Source: a bacterium
GTDB taxonomy: Bacteria; Patescibacteriota; Patescibacteriia; UBA1558; UBA10009
Length of the DNA stretch: 64,000 nt
Assembly: GCA_018672055.1 (NCBI GenBank)
Contig: JABHGM010000001.1
Span: 507,494-571,493, forward strand
Direction: 5' to 3'
The position numbers and the translations under genes are program-made. Below the pieces are notes generated by a model. It was not told where the DNA came from and searched no databases. It saw only the letters and a list, made by a program, of their open reading frames with translations. This document shows, in pieces, positions 13,208-62,182 of this stretch. Each line of letters opens with the position of its first letter. Positions within the stretch are counted from its first letter, which is position 1.

Positions 13208-13226
13208 TAGTCAGAACATAAAAGAC

Positions 13227-13254
13227 TTGACGTCCTTTTTTTTTATGTTATACT
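13227..13254 (+). promoter_or_regulatory. sigma70-type promoter of hrcA operon
   Basis: -35 TTGACG (13227-13232), 16-nt spacer, -10 TATACT (13249-13254); CIRCE starts 5 nt downstream. Confidence 0.65.
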
Positions 13255-13258
13255 AATT

Positions 13259-13285
13259 TTAGCACTCGTAGTATGAGAGTGCTAA
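13259..13285 (+). promoter_or_regulatory. CIRCE operator (HrcA binding site)
   Basis: Perfect consensus TTAGCACTC-N9-GAGTGCTAA immediately upstream of hrcA. Confidence 0.9.
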
Positions 13286-19751: not shown

Positions 19752-21301
19752 TTTATTTTATAAACTATACTATCATTTGTTTCAATCATTAGTTCAAAAT
19801 AGTCAGAATTATTATTTAAGATGTTACTTAGCTTTAAGTAACTTTTATTTATTTTTGATAACCATATATATTCTGAGTTAAAACTATTTAATATACTGTC
19901 TGCTATAGCCTTGGCAGTTTTTTTATTCTCTGGACATTCATCTATTTTAGAATCTAAGGCACATTGTTTAGTTGATATATTGTGCCATAGGTAATACATT
20001 TTATTATTGTAGTTATATAAAAATATTGGATCTAGGCCTACTACATAGTAATTGTGATGATTGTAAAAGAATAGTCTTGGAAAAGCGTCCCATGAAGTAT
20101 TAAAGACTATTGATTCAGAAGGCGTATTTTTATTTAACCATATAGCAGTTTCTTTAAATGTTTCAATTGAGTTAGTTGTTTTGTAGTCTGTATATATTTG
20201 TTTTAGAGGTAAGAATATTAAAGATAGGGTGGTTAAAGTAATTATTAATTTAAATGATAAGTTATTTAATTTATTATATATTTTTTTTATGTATTCATTA
20301 ATTTCAGGAATATTCATAGATATTTTGTAAATATAAGCAACTGATAATATTAGGATAGGTGCGAGGTATTCTATGAATCTATTATACTTAATTGTTAACA
20401 TAATAAATATCAGAGATAATAGTAGAAGAAAATAATAATTTATTTTATTTTTTAATTCAATTTCAACTTTAAAAAATATTTTAAGTAAAAATAGAGTTAT
20501 TAAAGAAATAATAAGTAAAAAAATAGGTAATGATGTTACTAGTAAAGCTAAAAAATTTAAATTTTCGAGTTCAATTGGAATCAATATATTGAGGTTATTA
20601 AAACTTGATAATCCTGATGTATAGTTGTTTATTATTAAATTAACAAAATTTGATGTTTCTGGATGAAATAATAATCCTAAAATACATCCTGACATTGTAA
20701 TTAATATTATTTGCCAATCAATTCTTTTTTCGATTACTAATTTAGTTAATAAATAACTACCTACTATAATTGATATGATAAATATTGAACCATATGAAGA
20801 TAATATAAAAAGTATAGGCCATAATAGTAATAGCCATTTTTTTTGTTTTAAAATAATATATATACCAATTATTGATAGTGATAATGTAAATAGAAGAGGC
20901 CTGGCTAATTGAAGTCTAAATAAAAATAGACTTGAAGAGAATAATAAAATAAATAGCCATATCTCAGGCTTTTTTATATTTAATTTATTTAAAATATAAT
21001 AGAAAAGTGTGAAGAATAATGCAGAGAATAAACTAATAAATATTTTTAAATTTAATGGAAAATTAAAATATGTAAATGGATGCATGGTTACATGGAATAA
21101 ATATCTTTGATCTGAAAAATTATTATTTAAATCAGTATAATATAACCAAGGAAAGTTATCTGAAATATTCTCTTCAAACATTATTTTTGAATATTTACTA
21201 TGAAAGAAAGCATCAACTCCTAATAAATCATTCGAAAATAATTGTATGCTAAAAGTAATAGTAAAAAATATGATGTATATGTATATAATTTTTTTCTTCA
21301 T
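19748..21301 (-). CDS. GT-C-fold membrane glycosyltransferase-like protein (ArnT/PMT/STT3-type)
   Basis: About 12 TM helices; first extracytoplasmic loop has LGVDAFFHSKY, resembling the acidic/aromatic catalytic loop of GT-C enzymes; C-terminal soluble domain of about 130 aa. Confidence 0.35.
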   Translation of the reverse strand: MKKKIIYIYIIFFTITFSIQLFSNDLLGVDAFFHSKYSKIMFEENISDNFPWLYYTDLNNNFSDQRYLFHVTMHPFTYFNFPLNLKIFISLFSALFFTLFYYILNKLNIKKPEIWLFILLFSSSLFLFRLQLARPLLFTLSLSIIGIYIILKQKKWLLLLWPILFILSSYGSIFIISIIVGSYLLTKLVIEKRIDWQIILITMSGCILGLLFHPETSNFVNLIINNYTSGLSSFNNLNILIPIELENLNFLALLVTSLPIFLLIISLITLFLLKIFFKVEIELKNKINYYFLLLLSLIFIMLTIKYNRFIEYLAPILILSVAYIYKISMNIPEINEYIKKIYNKLNNLSFKLIITLTTLSLIFLPLKQIYTDYKTTNSIETFKETAIWLNKNTPSESIVFNTSWDAFPRLFFYNHHNYYVVGLDPIFLYNYNNKMYYLWHNISTKQCALDSKIDECPENKKTAKAIADSILNSFNSEYIWLSKINKSYLKLSNILNNNSDYFELMIETNDSIVYKIN

Positions 21302-21328
21302 ATAAGCTATTTTAGCACTTTTTAAGAT

Positions 21329-21368
21329 AAAAAAAAGTGGGGAACTATATAAAATAGTCCACCCACTT
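21329..21368 (-). terminator. rho-independent terminator after giant membrane-protein gene
   Basis: On minus strand: AAGTGGGTGGACTAT-tttat-ATAGTTCCCCACTT (imperfect 14-bp stem) followed by TTTTTTTT. Confidence 0.6.
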
Positions 21369-21384
21369 ATTATTGTTAAATAAC

Positions 21385-24300
21385 CTAGATAGGTGTTGAG
21401 AAAACTTTTATAGTTATCTCATAAGCCATATCAGGGTTATCGTTTATCCAGTCAAGACGTAGATGTCCTCGTTCATCGTAAAAATCATCATTTACTGCGA
21501 GGTAGATCAACATATCTTGATCATAGTGATTTGTTATTACACCATTTGAACCAATATAAGTCCATCTGGAGTCGTATGGGAATCTAGCGTAAACTCCTCC
21601 CAGTTTTTTTTGATTAATTGATACTTGACCATTTTTTAATGGCCAGGAACCAATTGAGGTTCGATTTTTATTCCAATCAGCTACGTAGCCGTTTGGGTTA
21701 GTGAAGCGATTTGCGCCATCACAGCCTGATCCTGGACCGATATTTCCTTTTCCTTTTGCTTGGATTTGTGCCGAGCTACTTGGTTTAAGAATTATCGATG
21801 AATTACCATTTCCTGTTCGTAAAGGCAAGTCTATAACATAGTAGTCATCCTTTTTTTCTAAATTCAAGATTTCTTCTCGAATTGGGAATTCAACTATTGT
21901 TTTAACTTCCTTTATGGAGACGCTTGATATTTCATGTATTATTTCAGATTCTTCATTTTCATCATCTGATGAATCCGATGGATCAATAATATCATTTATT
22001 ACTTCCCCAATACTTCCTATCCACTGGTTGAATTTGCTTTCAAAGAAGGCAGGGTCTTGGATCGCATAAACAATATTGGTTCGATTATTATGTTCATCTA
22101 AGGGACGCACTACAAGATAATCGTCATCCTGTTTTACTTTTTCCAAAACAATCACTTTTGTTGTATCAGTAATTACCTCTTTAATCCTATTATTTATAGT
22201 ATAAGTTGTATTATCAACAGACCTATTTACAGTCACATCATATTTATAAAAATTATGAATAGATAGTATTTGTGGTTTGTCAAAAAAACTTGATACAGTG
22301 GGATATCCTTTAAAAACAAAGAAGATAAATAGGATAGATACCGTGGTTTGTACAAGATATACAAATCCTTTCAGCTTCACTATTTTTTTACCAGATTTTA
22401 TTTCATAATCTTTCATTGCTCGATCAACAGCGATCAAGATGAATGATAGAAAGAAGGCCCAAAAGAAATAAGGATGTTTGAGTTCAGCAAAATAAGTACC
22501 TGGTTGAGCATAGTGTCCAACGAGAGGGAATATTACAGTTGAGAATAACAAGGTATAGATCGTAGCTTGAAATGTAACTTTTATTGCTTCACCAGAGAAC
22601 TTTGATTTATTTGTTACCGTTGCTATCTGCTCTTTAACTTTATCAAAGGGATCACCTATATCTGGAAATTTTAGATCTGACTTCCCATCTATTATCATTT
22701 CAATCTTATCAGCATCTACTCCAAGAACAGTGAGAATGCCCGCAAACATTGATTTGATAGTATTGATACTAATATTAAGAGGCCATGTAGTGCCTTTCCA
22801 TAATAGAGTACCACTACTTTTTCCTAACCAAATGGCTGGTTCCAAGGTTACATTCTTACCAAGTTCTACCATGAAAATAGCAGATTTTAAGGCCGTGAAT
22901 GATAATCCATAGAATCCCCATAATGACAATACTAATAGTATTGATAAGAGAATTAGAATAAATCCTGTTATAGCTGGATTTATCAATGCTAACTTAGCTA
23001 AACATATTAATACTATTGCCAATATTAACATTTTACCCAAACCTTCAAAGTCTTTCTTTTCAAAAGATTCATATAAGCTTTTTAAAGCATTATATATTAT
23101 CTTAATACCACCCCATAGTATTGGAGGTCCTATAAGAATCATTGAAAGTAAATAAGCAATAGTTGTCAAAATGTGACCTTCTCCAAGCGATACATTAGAA
23201 TAATAATAAGCAACTAAAGACATTAAGACCAAAAGTGCTACTAAGATTAAAACAGTTAATTTATTTATCCAATAATTTATCCATGAGTCTACTGAGTAAA
23301 TAACTGATTTAAGTGTTACCATGGTAATTATTAAGAATATCTTGAGTAGATTTAAGAAGTGAGTTACTTTTAACAATATCAAGAATTGAGTGATTATTAT
23401 TAAACTAACAAGTACTTCAGCAAGTATCTTACTATCAAAGTAAAGTATACTTAATCCAGACAGAATCATCATAACTGTTAATAAGAGTAAAAAACCTAGT
23501 ATGACTGTGTAATCTTTTATCTTATCTGTGAGTTTACTACCCTGACAAAAGCTTTTACCTTTTTTAATCTGAATGCCTAAAAATAACCATACCCCTAAAG
23601 TTAGGAATGTTGGAATACTTAAAAGATTTTCAATTAAAGCAGCAAAAGTTGATTTGGGTTTTTCATCTTTTTCATCAAACGGTATAGCCTTTCTACCTGT
23701 TATTCCGTTATATTCTCTGTACATCTTACCAAAAAAATCTTTCAGAGTTTTTTTCATAGGGTTGAGCACAGAATTAGCTCCTGTTGATGCATCATCCAAA
23801 ATTTTAACAAAATATATTTTTACATTTTGAGGAATTCTGAACTCTTTATCCTTAACTTTTTCCCAAAAGTAACGCAGACCACTATCACCTAATAATCTTC
23901 TTGTATCGAGTTTATCGATTAGTTGTTTGACCAACTCTTTCTTAGAAAGATTTTTATCAGCTTCAAGTTCATTGAATTCTGCTATGATTGAATCGATTGT
24001 TTCACAAACTTTTGTGAAATTTTCCTTATCCTGCCAATCAATGCCAGAAATATTTTGTCTTGCTGATTCAACGAATTTCTTTTTAGGTTTATTGTCTTTC
24101 GTATCATTTTTCTTATTAACTTTTGCATCATTTTTGCTATTTGCAGTAGTTGCGCCAAAAGTACTAGTTAAGATAACTTCGCCAATAAGTATTATTGACA
24201 TATTATCAAGGTGACCTTTAGGCAAAGTTTTACAAAGTCTTAGGTAGGATTTGTAATTTTCTGGTTTATTTGCTGTATGTTTTTTATAGTATGTATCTAT

Positions 24301-24480
24301 AATTGCATGTGCTGAGTTATCATGAGGTCCTTTTGTAATTCCAAGATCAGATAGCATTTTATCACTAAGAGCTGTAAATAATTTTCTACCACCATCTGTT
24401 GCTGCATCTTTTACTGCAGAAGCAACCGTTTCACCAAAAACCCTGCCGGCACCGTCGCTTACTTGACTTATTGTACTCAT
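21385..24480 (-). CDS. giant polytopic membrane protein (about 1032 aa): soluble N-domain, about 10-12 TM core, about 330-aa C-terminal domain with lectin-like (PA-IL/PA14-like) module
   Basis: Start set at MSTISQ (ATG 24480-24478), which has an AAGGAG RBS 8 nt upstream; the track start at 24576 lies inside the promoter. C-terminus TYIGSNGVITNHYDQDMLIYLAVNDDFYDERG resembles, from memory, the LecA/PA14 beta-sandwich lectin signature. Confidence 0.6.
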   Translation of the reverse strand: MSTISQVSDGAGRVFGETVASAVKDAATDGGRKLFTALSDKMLSDLGITKGPHDNSAHAIIDTYYKKHTANKPENYKSYLRLCKTLPKGHLDNMSIILIGEVILTSTFGATTANSKNDAKVNKKNDTKDNKPKKKFVESARQNISGIDWQDKENFTKVCETIDSIIAEFNELEADKNLSKKELVKQLIDKLDTRRLLGDSGLRYFWEKVKDKEFRIPQNVKIYFVKILDDASTGANSVLNPMKKTLKDFFGKMYREYNGITGRKAIPFDEKDEKPKSTFAALIENLLSIPTFLTLGVWLFLGIQIKKGKSFCQGSKLTDKIKDYTVILGFLLLLTVMMILSGLSILYFDSKILAEVLVSLIIITQFLILLKVTHFLNLLKIFLIITMVTLKSVIYSVDSWINYWINKLTVLILVALLVLMSLVAYYYSNVSLGEGHILTTIAYLLSMILIGPPILWGGIKIIYNALKSLYESFEKKDFEGLGKMLILAIVLICLAKLALINPAITGFILILLSILLVLSLWGFYGLSFTALKSAIFMVELGKNVTLEPAIWLGKSSGTLLWKGTTWPLNISINTIKSMFAGILTVLGVDADKIEMIIDGKSDLKFPDIGDPFDKVKEQIATVTNKSKFSGEAIKVTFQATIYTLLFSTVIFPLVGHYAQPGTYFAELKHPYFFWAFFLSFILIAVDRAMKDYEIKSGKKIVKLKGFVYLVQTTVSILFIFFVFKGYPTVSSFFDKPQILSIHNFYKYDVTVNRSVDNTTYTINNRIKEVITDTTKVIVLEKVKQDDDYLVVRPLDEHNNRTNIVYAIQDPAFFESKFNQWIGSIGEVINDIIDPSDSSDDENEESEIIHEISSVSIKEVKTIVEFPIREEILNLEKKDDYYVIDLPLRTGNGNSSIILKPSSSAQIQAKGKGNIGPGSGCDGANRFTNPNGYVADWNKNRTSIGSWPLKNGQVSINQKKLGGVYARFPYDSRWTYIGSNGVITNHYDQDMLIYLAVNDDFYDERGHLRLDWINDNPDMAYEITIKVFSTPI

Positions 24481-24566
24481 TTTAATACTCCTTGTATTAT
24501 TTGTTGTTTGTTTTTTGTATTTTTTTGTCAATTTGCTACCTCTTATTAGAGGGTAATAAACATCTA

Positions 24567-24595
24567 AAAGTATCATATTTATTACATTTTGTCAA
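24567..24595 (-). promoter_or_regulatory. promoter of giant membrane-protein gene (shares 40-nt module with rnpB promoter)
   Basis: Minus strand: AAACATTGACAAAAT, -35 TTGACA, 17-nt spacer, -10 TACTTT; aligns almost base-for-base with the rnpB promoter. Confidence 0.5.
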
Positions 24596-24661
24596 TGTTT
24601 AAATGTTTGAGAAAATAAAAAATAGCATTTATTGCTATAATTTACATATTTTTATCTAATA

Positions 24662-54620: not shown

Positions 54621-54988
54621 AATACTCATTTAAGTTAATAAGCCGAATTCTGTATAACAGTGATCATCTATCTAGTCCATTTGTTGCCAAATGGATCAAG
54701 CTCTCAACCCGCTACTTAAAGTAGCCTACTTGAGATTGCACCGAATAGAAGTTTACCTCTTTTCCATCATCACTGAATGGAACGGGTTAGATCGTACTCT
54801 AACCTTTTCACCCATAATTTGTGAAGGGTATACCCGTGTCTCACAAATAGGAATATTTTCTGCTGCACTTGTCCTACTTAAGTATTCACATACCCAAGCG
54901 GTTGGTGTTACCAACTATTACTAAGATTGGTGTTCGGACTTTCCTCTACATAAATTAATATGTAGCGATCACTTAAACTTAAATGAGC
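54621..54988 (-). ncRNA. rnpB: RNase P RNA (bacterial type A-like)
   Basis: Minus strand: P1 CUCAUUUAAGUU pairs with AACUUAAAUGAG; P2 GUGAUC/GAUCAC; P3 hairpin CUACAUA-UUAAUU-UAUGUAG; P4 5' AGAGGAAAGUCCGAACACC; GGGUGAAAAGGUUAGAGUACGAUCUAACC (P10.1/P11 GGGUGAAA motif); 3' ACAGAAUUCGGCUUAU (P4 3' strand); local GC above background. Confidence 0.85.
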
Positions 54989-54995
54989 ATCTAGT

Positions 54996-55024
54996 AATAT
55001 ATCATATATAATGTATTTTGTCAA
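54996..55024 (-). promoter_or_regulatory. rnpB promoter
   Basis: Minus strand: -35 TTGACA, 17-nt spacer, -10 TATATT, 7 nt to the predicted G +1 of mature rnpB. Confidence 0.7.
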
Positions 55025-55071
55025 TGTTTAGTATTGTGTTAAAATAAGTTAAAATCTGTTATTATACTAAT

Positions 55072-56451
55072 ATGAAAAAGCTTGAATTAATATTTGCTGC
55101 TATATTAGTACCATTTGATTATTTGGTACTTCTTTTATCAGGTACTTTAGCCTATTTTTTAAGATTTGAATCATTTGTTACTGAAATAAGGCCTGTTGTA
55201 TTTACTATGTCATATAGTGATTTTTTTAATGTTTTAACCATTGCTTCACTTGCTTGGATTGTGGTATTTGCTATGTCAGGATTATATACTATTGAAAGAA
55301 GAAGTTTACTTAAAAATGTTACTAAAATAATAATTGCTTGTTCAGCTGCTACTTTAATAATTGTAGTAGCTTTTTTCTTTAACTTTCAACTATTTAATTC
55401 AAGACTTATTATTTTAACTGGTTGGATATTATCAATATTTTTTATCTCCATTGATAGAATATTAATTCATTATGTTAAAAAGATATTCTATAAAAAAGGT
55501 ATCGGTGTTAGGCAAGTAGTAATAATTGGTGAGGGTAGTAATGCACACGAGATTATAAATGAGTTTAATAGTAAACCTAGTTATGGTTTTAAAATAGTAA
55601 AGCACTTTAATCATTTTAATGAATTAGAATTAAAAGAACTAATTAAAAATAATAATATTGATGATTTAATATTAGCCGGTAGTGAATTAACCGAAGATGA
55701 GAAGAATAAGGTAGTTAATTTGTGTTTAGATAATAATTTAACATATAAGTTCGTAGCTTCTTTGTTAGAGACTAAAATAAGTAATTTTAAATTTAGTACT
55801 ATTGCTGGAGTACCAGTAATTGAAGTTGGACATACTCGTTTAGATGGTTGGGGTAGGATAATAAAAAGAATATTTGATTTTATAATGTCTTTAATTATTT
55901 TTATTATACTACTTCCTTTTTTAATACTAATTGGTCTTATAATAATATTTACTTCTCGTGGTCCAATGATTGTTAGATTATTAAGAATAGGGGATAATGG
56001 AGAGAAGTTTAAAATGTATAAATTTAGATCTATGGTTAAGGATGCTCATAAAATGAAACAAGATTTAACTGATTTTAATGAAAGAGCTGATGGTCCTTTA
56101 TTCAAAATGCATGATGATCCTAGAATAACAAAGTTTGGTAAATTTATTCGTAAGTATAGCTTAGATGAATTACCTCAACTGATTAACGTAATACGCGGAC
56201 AAATGAGTTTAGTTGGTCCACGCCCTCATGAACCACAGGAAGTAGAGAAGTATGAGGTTAAAGATAAGAAGTTACTGGCTATAAAACCTGGAATTACTGG
56301 CATGGCACAAGTATCAGGTAGAAGTGATTTAGATTGGCAGCAAGAAGTAAGACTTGATACATATTATGTTGAGAATTGGAGTTTAGGACTTGATATACAA
56401 ATAATATTAAAAACACCTAGGGCTGTTTTAGGAAAAAGAAAGGCTGTATGA
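55072..56451 (+). CDS. polyprenyl-phosphate glycosyl-1-phosphate transferase (WbaP/PglB-type priming sugar transferase)
   Basis: 4 N-terminal TM, Rossmann-like linker, C-terminal bacterial sugar-transferase domain (KFRSM ... DELPQLINVIRGQMSLVGPRP). Confidence 0.85.
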   Translation: MKKLELIFAAILVPFDYLVLLLSGTLAYFLRFESFVTEIRPVVFTMSYSDFFNVLTIASLAWIVVFAMSGLYTIERRSLLKNVTKIIIACSAATLIIVVAFFFNFQLFNSRLIILTGWILSIFFISIDRILIHYVKKIFYKKGIGVRQVVIIGEGSNAHEIINEFNSKPSYGFKIVKHFNHFNELELKELIKNNNIDDLILAGSELTEDEKNKVVNLCLDNNLTYKFVASLLETKISNFKFSTIAGVPVIEVGHTRLDGWGRIIKRIFDFIMSLIIFIILLPFLILIGLIIIFTSRGPMIVRLLRIGDNGEKFKMYKFRSMVKDAHKMKQDLTDFNERADGPLFKMHDDPRITKFGKFIRKYSLDELPQLINVIRGQMSLVGPRPHEPQEVEKYEVKDKKLLAIKPGITGMAQVSGRSDLDWQQEVRLDTYYVENWSLGLDIQIILKTPRAVLGKRKAV

Positions 56452-60727: not shown

Positions 60728-62092
60728 TTATTGACCCGAACCTTTTAGTACAGTATTAATTGTTTTTAAAATAGTTCCTAGATCTAAAAAGAAAGATCTA
60801 TTTTTTATATAATATAAATCATATTGTAATTTTTCTAAGGTTTCTTTTTCTGAACCACCATATGATGGTCCTAGTACTTGAGCCCAACCTGTTAGACCTG
60901 GTTTAACAAGTAATCTTTCTTTGTAAAAAGGTATTTGTTTAACAAGTTCATTAATAAACTCTGGTCTTTCTGGTCTTGGTCCAACAAATGACATTTCGCC
61001 AATTAATATATTCCAGAGTTGAGGTATTTCATCAATACGAGTTTTTCTTAAAAATTTACCAAGTGTGGTAATACGTGGATCATTTTTAGTAGCCCATTGT
61101 GGTCCATTTGATTCTGCATTTTGATACATGGTTCTAAATTTGATAGCTTTAAATGTCTTATTATCTTTACCCGTTCTAATTTGTTTGAAAAATATATTTC
61201 CTTTAGATGTTATAGCTATTAGTAAACTAATAAGTGGAATGAATAATAAAGTTATAATACCTAGAAGTAAAGCTATAAAAATATCGAATAATCTTTTTTG
61301 ATTTTCATAAGCTGATTTATCTCCTTCTGATAGATTTTCTAAAAACCATGATTGATTAATATTTGAAAGAGGTATTTTTTGAAAAAGTATTTCGTAAAAA
61401 TGAGTTAATGTTATAAAATTTACTCTTAAATTTAAATTATTAAATAGTAATTTTGTGCTTTTAGAATTTAATGAGTTAGCAATAACAATTTGTTCAATAT
61501 TTTTTTCTTTAATAATTTCAGGTAATTTAGAAAGGTCAGTTATAACAGGTATAGCTGCTTGATAGTTATTGCTATAATTTTCATCAAAAATAGCTTTAGC
61601 CTTATACCCAGAAGCTTTAGCTTCATATATGACACTTGTTATTAATGGATCATAGCCTAAGAAAATTATATTTTTTTCTAAGGCTTGTATTTGAATTAAT
61701 TTAGTAAATAGTCTTCTCCATGAAAATTGTATAATACTAGTTACTATAATAATTATAGCTAAGATTGTTTTAGGAGTAATTGTTATATAATTCTGAGCTA
61801 TATAAAAATAAAAGATAGCTACTACAGTAATCATTATAGCTACTTTAATTGTATTCCCAACTAAAGTAATTAAATTTCTTGATCTTTTCAAATCATAGAA
61901 ATTAAAAGCATAATAAATTGGTAACCATAATATGAATAAAATAGCAAAAATAGGCCAGTGAATATTCCATATTTCTTGGTTAACAGGCTCTAAATATCTT
62001 ACTAATAAGGCTATATATAGACTAATAAAAAGTATTAGTATATCGCCTAATAATAGGATAAAACGCTTAAAGTTATTAATCATTTGTTTCAT
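60728..62092 (-). CDS. polyprenyl-phosphate glycosyl-1-phosphate transferase (second WbaP-like priming transferase)
   Basis: C-terminal KFRTM ... DEIPQLWNILIGEMSFVGPRP. Start moved to MKQMINN (62092), which sits 7 nt after a consensus -10; the track start at 62128 is a TTG inside the promoter. Confidence 0.8.
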   Translation of the reverse strand: MKQMINNFKRFILLLGDILILFISLYIALLVRYLEPVNQEIWNIHWPIFAILFILWLPIYYAFNFYDLKRSRNLITLVGNTIKVAIMITVVAIFYFYIAQNYITITPKTILAIIIIVTSIIQFSWRRLFTKLIQIQALEKNIIFLGYDPLITSVIYEAKASGYKAKAIFDENYSNNYQAAIPVITDLSKLPEIIKEKNIEQIVIANSLNSKSTKLLFNNLNLRVNFITLTHFYEILFQKIPLSNINQSWFLENLSEGDKSAYENQKRLFDIFIALLLGIITLLFIPLISLLIAITSKGNIFFKQIRTGKDNKTFKAIKFRTMYQNAESNGPQWATKNDPRITTLGKFLRKTRIDEIPQLWNILIGEMSFVGPRPERPEFINELVKQIPFYKERLLVKPGLTGWAQVLGPSYGGSEKETLEKLQYDLYYIKNRSFFLDLGTILKTINTVLKGSGQ

Positions 62093-62099
62093 AGGACTG

Positions 62100-62128
62100 A
62101 TTATATTGATTTTTGAGAAAAAAGTCAA
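62100..62128 (-). promoter_or_regulatory. sigma70-type promoter, leaderless (AAACATTGACT-17-TATAAT-7-ATG)
   Basis: Minus strand -35 TTGACT, -10 TATAAT; shares the AAACATTGAC upstream module with the rnpB and giant-gene promoters. Confidence 0.6.
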
Positions 62129-62182
62129 TGTTTTGTTCTTGAATTTTGTTATAAAAAATGCTATTGTTTCTATATTAAAAAT

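Follow-up and report, generated by a model that had tools for sequence, protein, structure and literature searches.

Three minus-strand sites sharing the 10-mer AAACATTGAC in the DNA analysed here, a window of 64,000 nucleotides, are very probably independent, ordinary promoters of the sigma-70/sigma-A type, belonging to an uncultured, AT-rich Patescibacteria bacterium close to Komeilibacteria. Each is located in an intergenic gap upstream of its own gene, namely rnpB, a gene for a membrane protein of 1031 amino acids and the second WbaP-like sugar transferase gene of the window (Table 1). A sequence-only reading had taken the sites for a strong constitutive promoter class with an upstream element or for a duplicated regulatory cassette, and had concluded that the membrane protein is expressed like a housekeeping RNA. 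A class can be spoken of in the trivial sense that the promoters are near consensus, but not as a class with its own upstream element. A conserved upstream element, a cassette and a 'housekeeping RNA' promoter class are not supported, and housekeeping-like expression of the 1031-aa gene is only an inference from the quality of its hexamers.

Architecture of the three promoters

The -35 hexamers TTGACA (rnpB), TTGACA (1031-aa gene) and TTGACT (second WbaP-like gene) match the consensus at 6/6, 6/6 and 5/6 positions, respectively, and in each case a 17-bp spacer leads to a -10 hexamer of the form TAnnnT (TATATT, TACTTT and TATAAT). The earlier description of the sites as strong-looking promoters is thus borne out by hexamers at or near consensus, 17-bp spacers and correct placement before genes, start sites, promoter strength and sigma dependence being inferred from sequence. 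The interval 54996-55024, from which the analysis started, runs exactly from the -10 to the -35 of the rnpB promoter. For the 1031-aa gene, the -10 matches the consensus at 4/6 bases, and about 86 nt separate its end from the ATG. As had been proposed, the rnpB and 1031-aa-gene promoters are of one type, both with an extended -10 (TRTGn); a TGn extended -10 is the norm among the other window promoters. The promoter of the second WbaP-like gene is without TG, its spacer ending in ATCAa.

All three promoters would be read by an RNA polymerase with a sigma factor of the sigma-70/sigma-A type, as judged from their architecture. Those of rnpB and the 1031-aa gene have the TRTGn '-16 region' known from Firmicutes (Voskuil and Chambliss, as cited in PMC2613000), and both carry directly after the -35 hexamer the run of A that is common in promoters of the phylum. 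Their TAGATG fits a discriminator rich in A/G and, behind it, a pyrimidine-purine-pyrimidine start element, from the G of which transcription would begin, 6-8 nt after the -10. PMC12641261 describes TRTG in Firmicutes, transcription starts centred 7 bp downstream of the -10, a YRY start element, an AT-tract adjoining the -35, to which the run of A corresponds, and AG- or AT-rich discriminators in Terrabacteria. A literature search for promoter mapping in Patescibacteria or Saccharibacteria found none.

For rnpB, the transcription start is predicted at G54988, 8 nt after the -10. According to the Rfam alignment and reading of the sequence, this G can pair and lengthen stem P1; therefore, the primary and mature 5' ends of the RNA probably coincide. 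The bases that follow belong to stem P1, which makes their partial resemblance to the leader of the 1031-aa gene incidental. The promoters of rnpB and of the first WbaP-like gene, which is divergent from it, are placed back-to-back within 86 nt (54986-55071). The string AAATCTGYTATTATA before the ATG of the WbaP-like gene is kept at two loci of relatives (L013 and L021), more strongly than the flanks of the rnpB promoter. A role of GTCAATGTTT, the plus-strand form of the 10-mer, as a site for the divergent first WbaP-like and Wzy_C/TPR genes was rejected, because its distances to the -10 and the start codon differ between them.

The predicted start of the 1031-aa gene is at about G24561. The fold of the resulting leader is unremarkable (minimum free energy -9.3 kcal/mol, z = -1.85) and an Rfam search with the leader gave no match. 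Directly 3' of the gene (21302-21384, minus strand), a strong hairpin with a T-run resembles a terminator as read by eye. The next gene, starting at 21301 (minus strand), encodes a polytopic membrane protein of 517 aa without Pfam match and has TGcTAAAAT 7 nt before its ATG; in view of the hairpin with T-run and this -10 of its own, the two genes look separately transcribed.

The gene addressed earlier as a WbaP gene does encode a protein with Bac_transf and CoA_binding_3 domains. Its ATG follows TATAAT by 7 nt, a spacing that makes a leaderless mRNA probable. In about 10 of 25 transcription units, the first gene lacks a Shine-Dalgarno sequence and has a TAnnnT that ends 6-7 nt ahead of its start codon; leaderless mRNAs thus seem to be widespread in this Patescibacteria genome. 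With its 80-nt leader and AAGGAG, the 1031-aa gene is an exception to this pattern. Another promoter of the window, at 13208-13272, belongs to hrcA. It reads TTGACG-16-TATACT, contains TATGt and precedes the hrcA-grpE-hsp20...dnaK-dnaJ cluster; between promoter and cluster comes TTAGCACTC, which corresponds to the left half of a CIRCE heat-shock operator.

Table 1. Features of the window (nucleotide positions) and rnpB promoters of relatives
Feature	Position	Strand	Description
rnpB promoter	54996-55029	-	AAACA 55029-55025; -35 TTGACA 55024-55019; -10 TATATT 55001-54996
rnpB promoter spacer		-	17 nt, ends TATGa (TRTGn, 55006-55002)
rnpB	54623-54988	-	RNase P RNA (bacterial class A); RF00010 match 54623-54985, 201.8 bits
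First WbaP-like gene	55072-56451	+	divergent from rnpB
Likely -10 of first WbaP-like gene	55057-55071	+	TGt TATTAT, ends 6 nt before ATG
1031-aa-gene promoter	24567-24600	-	AAACA 24600-24596; -35 TTGACA 24595-24590; -10 TACTTT 24572-24567
1031-aa-gene promoter spacer		-	17 nt, ends TATGa 24577-24573
5' leader of 1031-aa gene	24481-24561	-	about 80 nt; small 5'-proximal hairpin, A-rich stretch, AAGGAG Shine-Dalgarno
1031-aa membrane-protein gene	21385-24480	-	ORF
Second WbaP-like gene promoter	62100-62133	-	AAACA 62133-62129; -35 TTGACT 62128-62123; -10 TATAAT 62105-62100
Second WbaP-like polyprenyl-phosphate sugar transferase gene	60728-62092	-	454 aa; Bac_transf + CoA_binding_3
Putative leaderless-type starts	26689, 35554, 38614, 40345, 55072, 57601, 62183	+	-10-like hexamer spacing
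Putative leaderless-type starts	21301, 62092	-	-10-like hexamer spacing
rnpB promoter, L013			aatcata TTGACA attgtttaaatgtgTGa TATATT cattttGCTCATT
rnpB promoter, L018			tttcatg TTGACA aaacaattctattgTGc TATACT cattttGCTCATT
rnpB promoter, L021			agagttc TTGACT ttatttttaaattaTGt TATGTT agtttaGCTCATT

The shared 10-mer and the resemblance of two promoters

Exact plus-strand copies of GTCAATGTTT are found at 24591-24600, 55020-55029 and 62124-62133; the first of these had been placed correctly before, the other two one position too high. On the minus strand each copy reads as AAACA followed by the -35 hexamer, and the claim that three minus-strand promoters have this 10-mer in common holds, with all copies in the same register and in front of 17-bp spacers. 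For the second WbaP-like gene, the promoter shares the 10-mer and nothing wider. Shuffled sequences lead one to expect 0.18 copies instead of three, and only 1 of 100 contained as many as three. One-mismatch variants are not enriched (9 versus 7.0 expected), the extra ones being situated in coding DNA. The AAACA flank is present in three of the eight TTGAC-type promoters of the window, and the probability that any 5-mer flank is common to at least three promoters amounts to 0.003, 0.008 or 0.09 if 8, 11 or 25 promoters are considered. The over-representation of the flank in the window is only marginal.

These counts, together with the constant register, are what favours a species-specific extended -35 or promoter-proximal element, which would define a small co-expressed set of rnpB, the 1031-aa gene and the second WbaP-like gene and could serve as an UP-like contact for the alpha-subunit, as an extra contact for sigma region 4 or as the site of a regulator. 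The chance-level frequency of one-mismatch variants argues against such an element, as does the lack of any copy of AAACATTGAC in another 11.5 kb of this genome, of which about 75 kb were covered in total. A tRNA-operon promoter in this additional sequence (TTGACT-16-TATAAT) has the flank AAGTTC and neither AAACA nor the wider module. On reading the sequence, no dyad or direct repeat is present in AAACATTGACAAAAT, and a functional link between the three targets, an RNA gene, a membrane protein without known function and a sugar transferase, is not obvious. With the lack of conservation in relatives described below, a species-specific element is unlikely, and neither symmetry nor conservation in orthologues points to an operator or regulon.

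At the other extreme, the shared features could be coincidences in AT-rich DNA, some of the sites not being promoters at all. The window has a GC content of 28.8% and its intergenic DNA is 82% A+T; consensus-like sites occur at the frequency seen in shuffles (69 versus 53.8 and 73 versus 71.7), and by estimate exact 15-mer repeats should arise by chance in a sequence of 64 kb with 29% GC. However, the sites in question are the only ones with 10-11 of 12 hexamer matches in the right gaps and at the right distance from a gene, and their core elements are conserved in orthologues, which makes mere coincidence extremely unlikely.

The resemblance between the rnpB and 1031-aa-gene promoters reported earlier is confirmed. 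About 50 nt can be aligned, with 26 matches over 30 ungapped positions, a 2-nt indel and then TAGATG. In detail, the alignment comprises TAAACATTGACAAAAT (16 identical positions), eight nucleotides of which four match, TATGATA, the 2-nt indel and TAGATG.T.ATT. Aligned locally, the two 60-nt promoter regions score 27.5, while the next best score of the rnpB promoter in the rest of the window is at most 18. In 60 window-sized Markov nulls the maximum score was 18.9 on average and 22 at the highest, corresponding to a Gumbel P of about 7e-5 for the observed value. If both members of simulated pairs are required to have the form TTGACA-17-TRTGn-TAnnnT in 82%-AT DNA, the conditional P rises to 3e-4 per pair, and to 2.6e-3 if AAA after the -35 is fixed in addition. 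The approximately eight TTGAC-type promoters of the window make up 28 pairs, for which the corrected conditional P is 0.01-0.07. Thus, the likeness is significant in comparison with random DNA and only marginal once both sites are taken as consensus promoters, and in the whole genome one such look-alike pair is expected.

The high score and the continuation of the likeness past the -10 into TAGATG.T.ATT are the points in favour of one promoter having been copied from the other, either as a duplicated cassette or by short-tract gene conversion between rnpB and the 1031-aa gene. Against copying, the likeness ends within about 50 nt and contains a 2-nt indel, and the matches downstream in rnpB (GCTCATT) fall into stem P1, where the sequence is constrained by RNA structure. 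Moreover, the -10 hexamers differ (TATATT versus TACTTT), each resembling that of its own orthologue and not that of the look-alike promoter. The metagenome scan, the relatives' loci and the extra sequence of the same genome contain no further copies, which leaves two in about 75 kb. Both promoters are found in relatives at orthologous positions with their core in register. Since they are already present at the orthologous loci, neither needed to be imported, and copying is very unlikely. The cassette of the sequence-only reading is contradicted by the age of the promoters at both loci, the affinity of each -10 to its orthologue and the short match with an indel. The likeness over about 40 nt is best explained by two independent promoters that lie near the same optimum in 82%-AT intergenic DNA, supplemented by chance matches, which would consist of AAACA and four bases of the spacer. 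What weighs against independence is the gap between the pair score and all other scores, for which the corrected conditional P offers only the marginal values given above.

Orthologous promoters in relatives

Proteins identical to those of the window are encoded on metagenomic contigs whose lengths reach 0.2-0.7 Mb. Patescibacteria, for the most part under the label Komeilibacteria, provide the nearest named relatives of its Dus and WbaP-like proteins. At three loci (L013, L018 and L021), GT4, rnpB and the WbaP-like gene follow one another as in the window, and the first WbaP-like protein is 67-70% identical. What the rnpB promoters at these loci conserve is limited to the hexamers, the 17-bp spacing, TRTG and a distance of 6-7 nt from the -10 to GCTCATT; AAACA, AAAT and TAGAT(G) are missing from all three. 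At L021 (about 2500-2560), rnpB is inverted relative to the window, sharing its strand with the WbaP-like gene, and has its own TTGACT-17-TGtTATGTT.

The 1031-aa gene was approached differently. A word-based homologue search with its protein returned the protein itself alone, so that relatives of the promoter were reached through the neighbouring dus gene. At L016, with a Dus protein 64% identical, the promoter downstream of dus reads gtaggg TTGACA aaactacaaataTATGa TACTTT agattgtt (also given as TTGACAAAActacaaataTATGATACTTTAGAT and as TTGACAAAAC...TATGATACTTTAGAT). It keeps the -10 TACTTT and the AGAT of the 1031-aa gene and has GTAGGG as its upstream flank instead of AAACA. Further downstream of dus, loci L026-L028 contain TTGACAAAAT-N8-TATGcTATACT. 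At both loci, orthologous promoters keep only the core elements along with AAA after the -35, and an alignment of six promoters is invariant in the core only at TTGAC and at the TA...T of the -10. Core conservation was judged at the rnpB and dus-downstream promoters, orthologues of the second WbaP-like gene being only 47% identical. The orthologous positions indicate that both promoters predate the split of these lineages.

AAACA is missing from all five orthologous promoters (rnpB in L013, L018 and L021; dus-downstream in L016 and L026), and AAACATTGAC has no copy in about 65 kb of the relatives' loci. Together with its absence from the tRNA-operon promoter and from 20 other Patescibacteria promoters (see below), this speaks against the proposed upstream element, AAACA being neither general nor conserved.

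In the closest relative (79-81% protein identity), the available contigs (L004-L012) are 2-4 kb long and end beside both loci. In several independent assemblies the ends lie about 50-160 nt from the WbaP-like start and the dus stop, and the other end of L004 carries an IS30-like gene (HTH_38/rve). Insertion sequences may have rearranged both loci in this relative. A repeat at the promoter module was considered as the cause of the contig ends and dismissed, as these ends do not resemble the module.

The protein encoded behind the dus-downstream promoter of the window lacks close homologues. The 'giant membrane-protein gene' of the earlier reading does encode a polytopic protein, 1031 aa in length, with about 10 hydrophobic segments within residues 285-725, for which no Pfam match was found. 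An exhaustive HMMER search yielded remote relatives only, and these in three separate pieces: proteins of 240-310 aa for residues 5-228, proteins of about 600 aa for residues 479-768, and the C-termini of proteins of 490-640 aa for residues 879-1017. At L016 (7105-9681), a pair of genes for 247 and 606 aa follows the same conserved dus-downstream promoter. BLASTP of the 1031-aa protein against the L016 proteins downstream of dus gave no hit, leaving a weak transitive link. The arrangement suggests that the 1031-aa protein corresponds, in fused and fast-evolving form, to the 247-aa and 606-aa pair, to which its direct link is weak. It is a probable gene fusion, and its locus, situated between dus and dnaJ, is probably a very fast-evolving one.

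Recurrence in unrelated genomes and relation to known promoters

The pattern AAACATTGACAAAAT-N8-TRTG was scanned in one genome per species and occurs at no fewer than 119 loci, the genome of the window not being among those listed. Judged by record title, about 47 of the matches listed are from Firmicutes, about 27 from Patescibacteria and 11 from Cyanobacteria; Proteobacteria, Spirochaetes, Bacteroidota, Chloroflexi and others are also represented. In 77 of the 119 listed, TAnnnT follows exactly one base after TRTG, a feature the pattern did not require. The presence of an unrequired and correctly placed -10 in this share of the listed matches marks them as functional-looking promoters, in which the same string was reached independently. 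The Patescibacteria matches precede varied genes, including those for a cold-shock-like protein and a DEAD-box-helicase-like protein (from their translated starts), and boxA-like leaders.

A stricter pattern of 22 fixed bases, AAACATTGACAAAAT-N8-TATGATA, was scanned in metagenome contigs and was found in 25 of them, representing about 17 unrelated contexts. A full TAnnnT is present in 20 of these 25 matches, and one has the TATATT of rnpB. The organism itself contributed the rnpB locus alone (L156), the contig with the 1031-aa gene evidently not being in that metagenome collection. At some unrelated Patescibacteria loci, a second AAACATTGAC is located near the promoter match, namely at L039 (7273-7321), where it is inverted and lies 12 nt after the -10, and at L030, L151 and L164 (two copies about 83 nt apart).

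Among independent TTGACA promoters in Patescibacteria loci, AAA comes next in 6 of 12. AAACA upstream was found in none of 20 other strong promoters in Patescibacteria loci, the seeds of the scan being left aside. A lineage-specific promoter subclass or regulon, in which AAACA, fixed in this one species at the rnpB, 1031-aa and WbaP-like genes, would be read by an extra contact of RNA polymerase or a regulator, or would have spread through short-tract conversion between promoters, is quite unlikely.

Among known systems, the three sites come close to the sigma-A '-16 region' promoters found in Firmicutes such as Bacillus subtilis, sharing with them TTGACA, a 17-bp spacer, TRTGn-TAnnnT and A/T-rich flanks. 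They differ in that the host belongs to the Patescibacteria and the third promoter has no TG, and the likeness is one of sequence. Promoters of the E. coli rrn P1 type with UP elements are similar in their near-consensus -35, the A-rich stretch just upstream and the stable RNA product (here rnpB). However, AAACA adjoins the -35, whereas an UP element is an A/T tract at -40 to -60, and AAACA is found neither in the rnpB orthologues nor in the tRNA-operon promoter of the same genome. Promoters of leaderless mRNAs are common in Actinobacteria and Deinococcus. The second WbaP-like gene resembles them in the 7 nt between TATAAT and ATG, a similarity of spacing only, in contrast to the 1031-aa gene with its leader and ribosome binding site and to rnpB, which is non-coding.

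In conclusion, the promoter features found here are textbook sigma-70-type elements with a Firmicutes-like TRTGn extended -10. Exact strings of 15-22 specified bases in which the promoter consensus is included have arisen convergently in over 100 unrelated genomes and are thus not evidence of homology, and near-consensus promoters in AT-rich genomes can mimic copied modules. The residual AAACA signal, if true, would represent a small regulatory detail at the level of the species.
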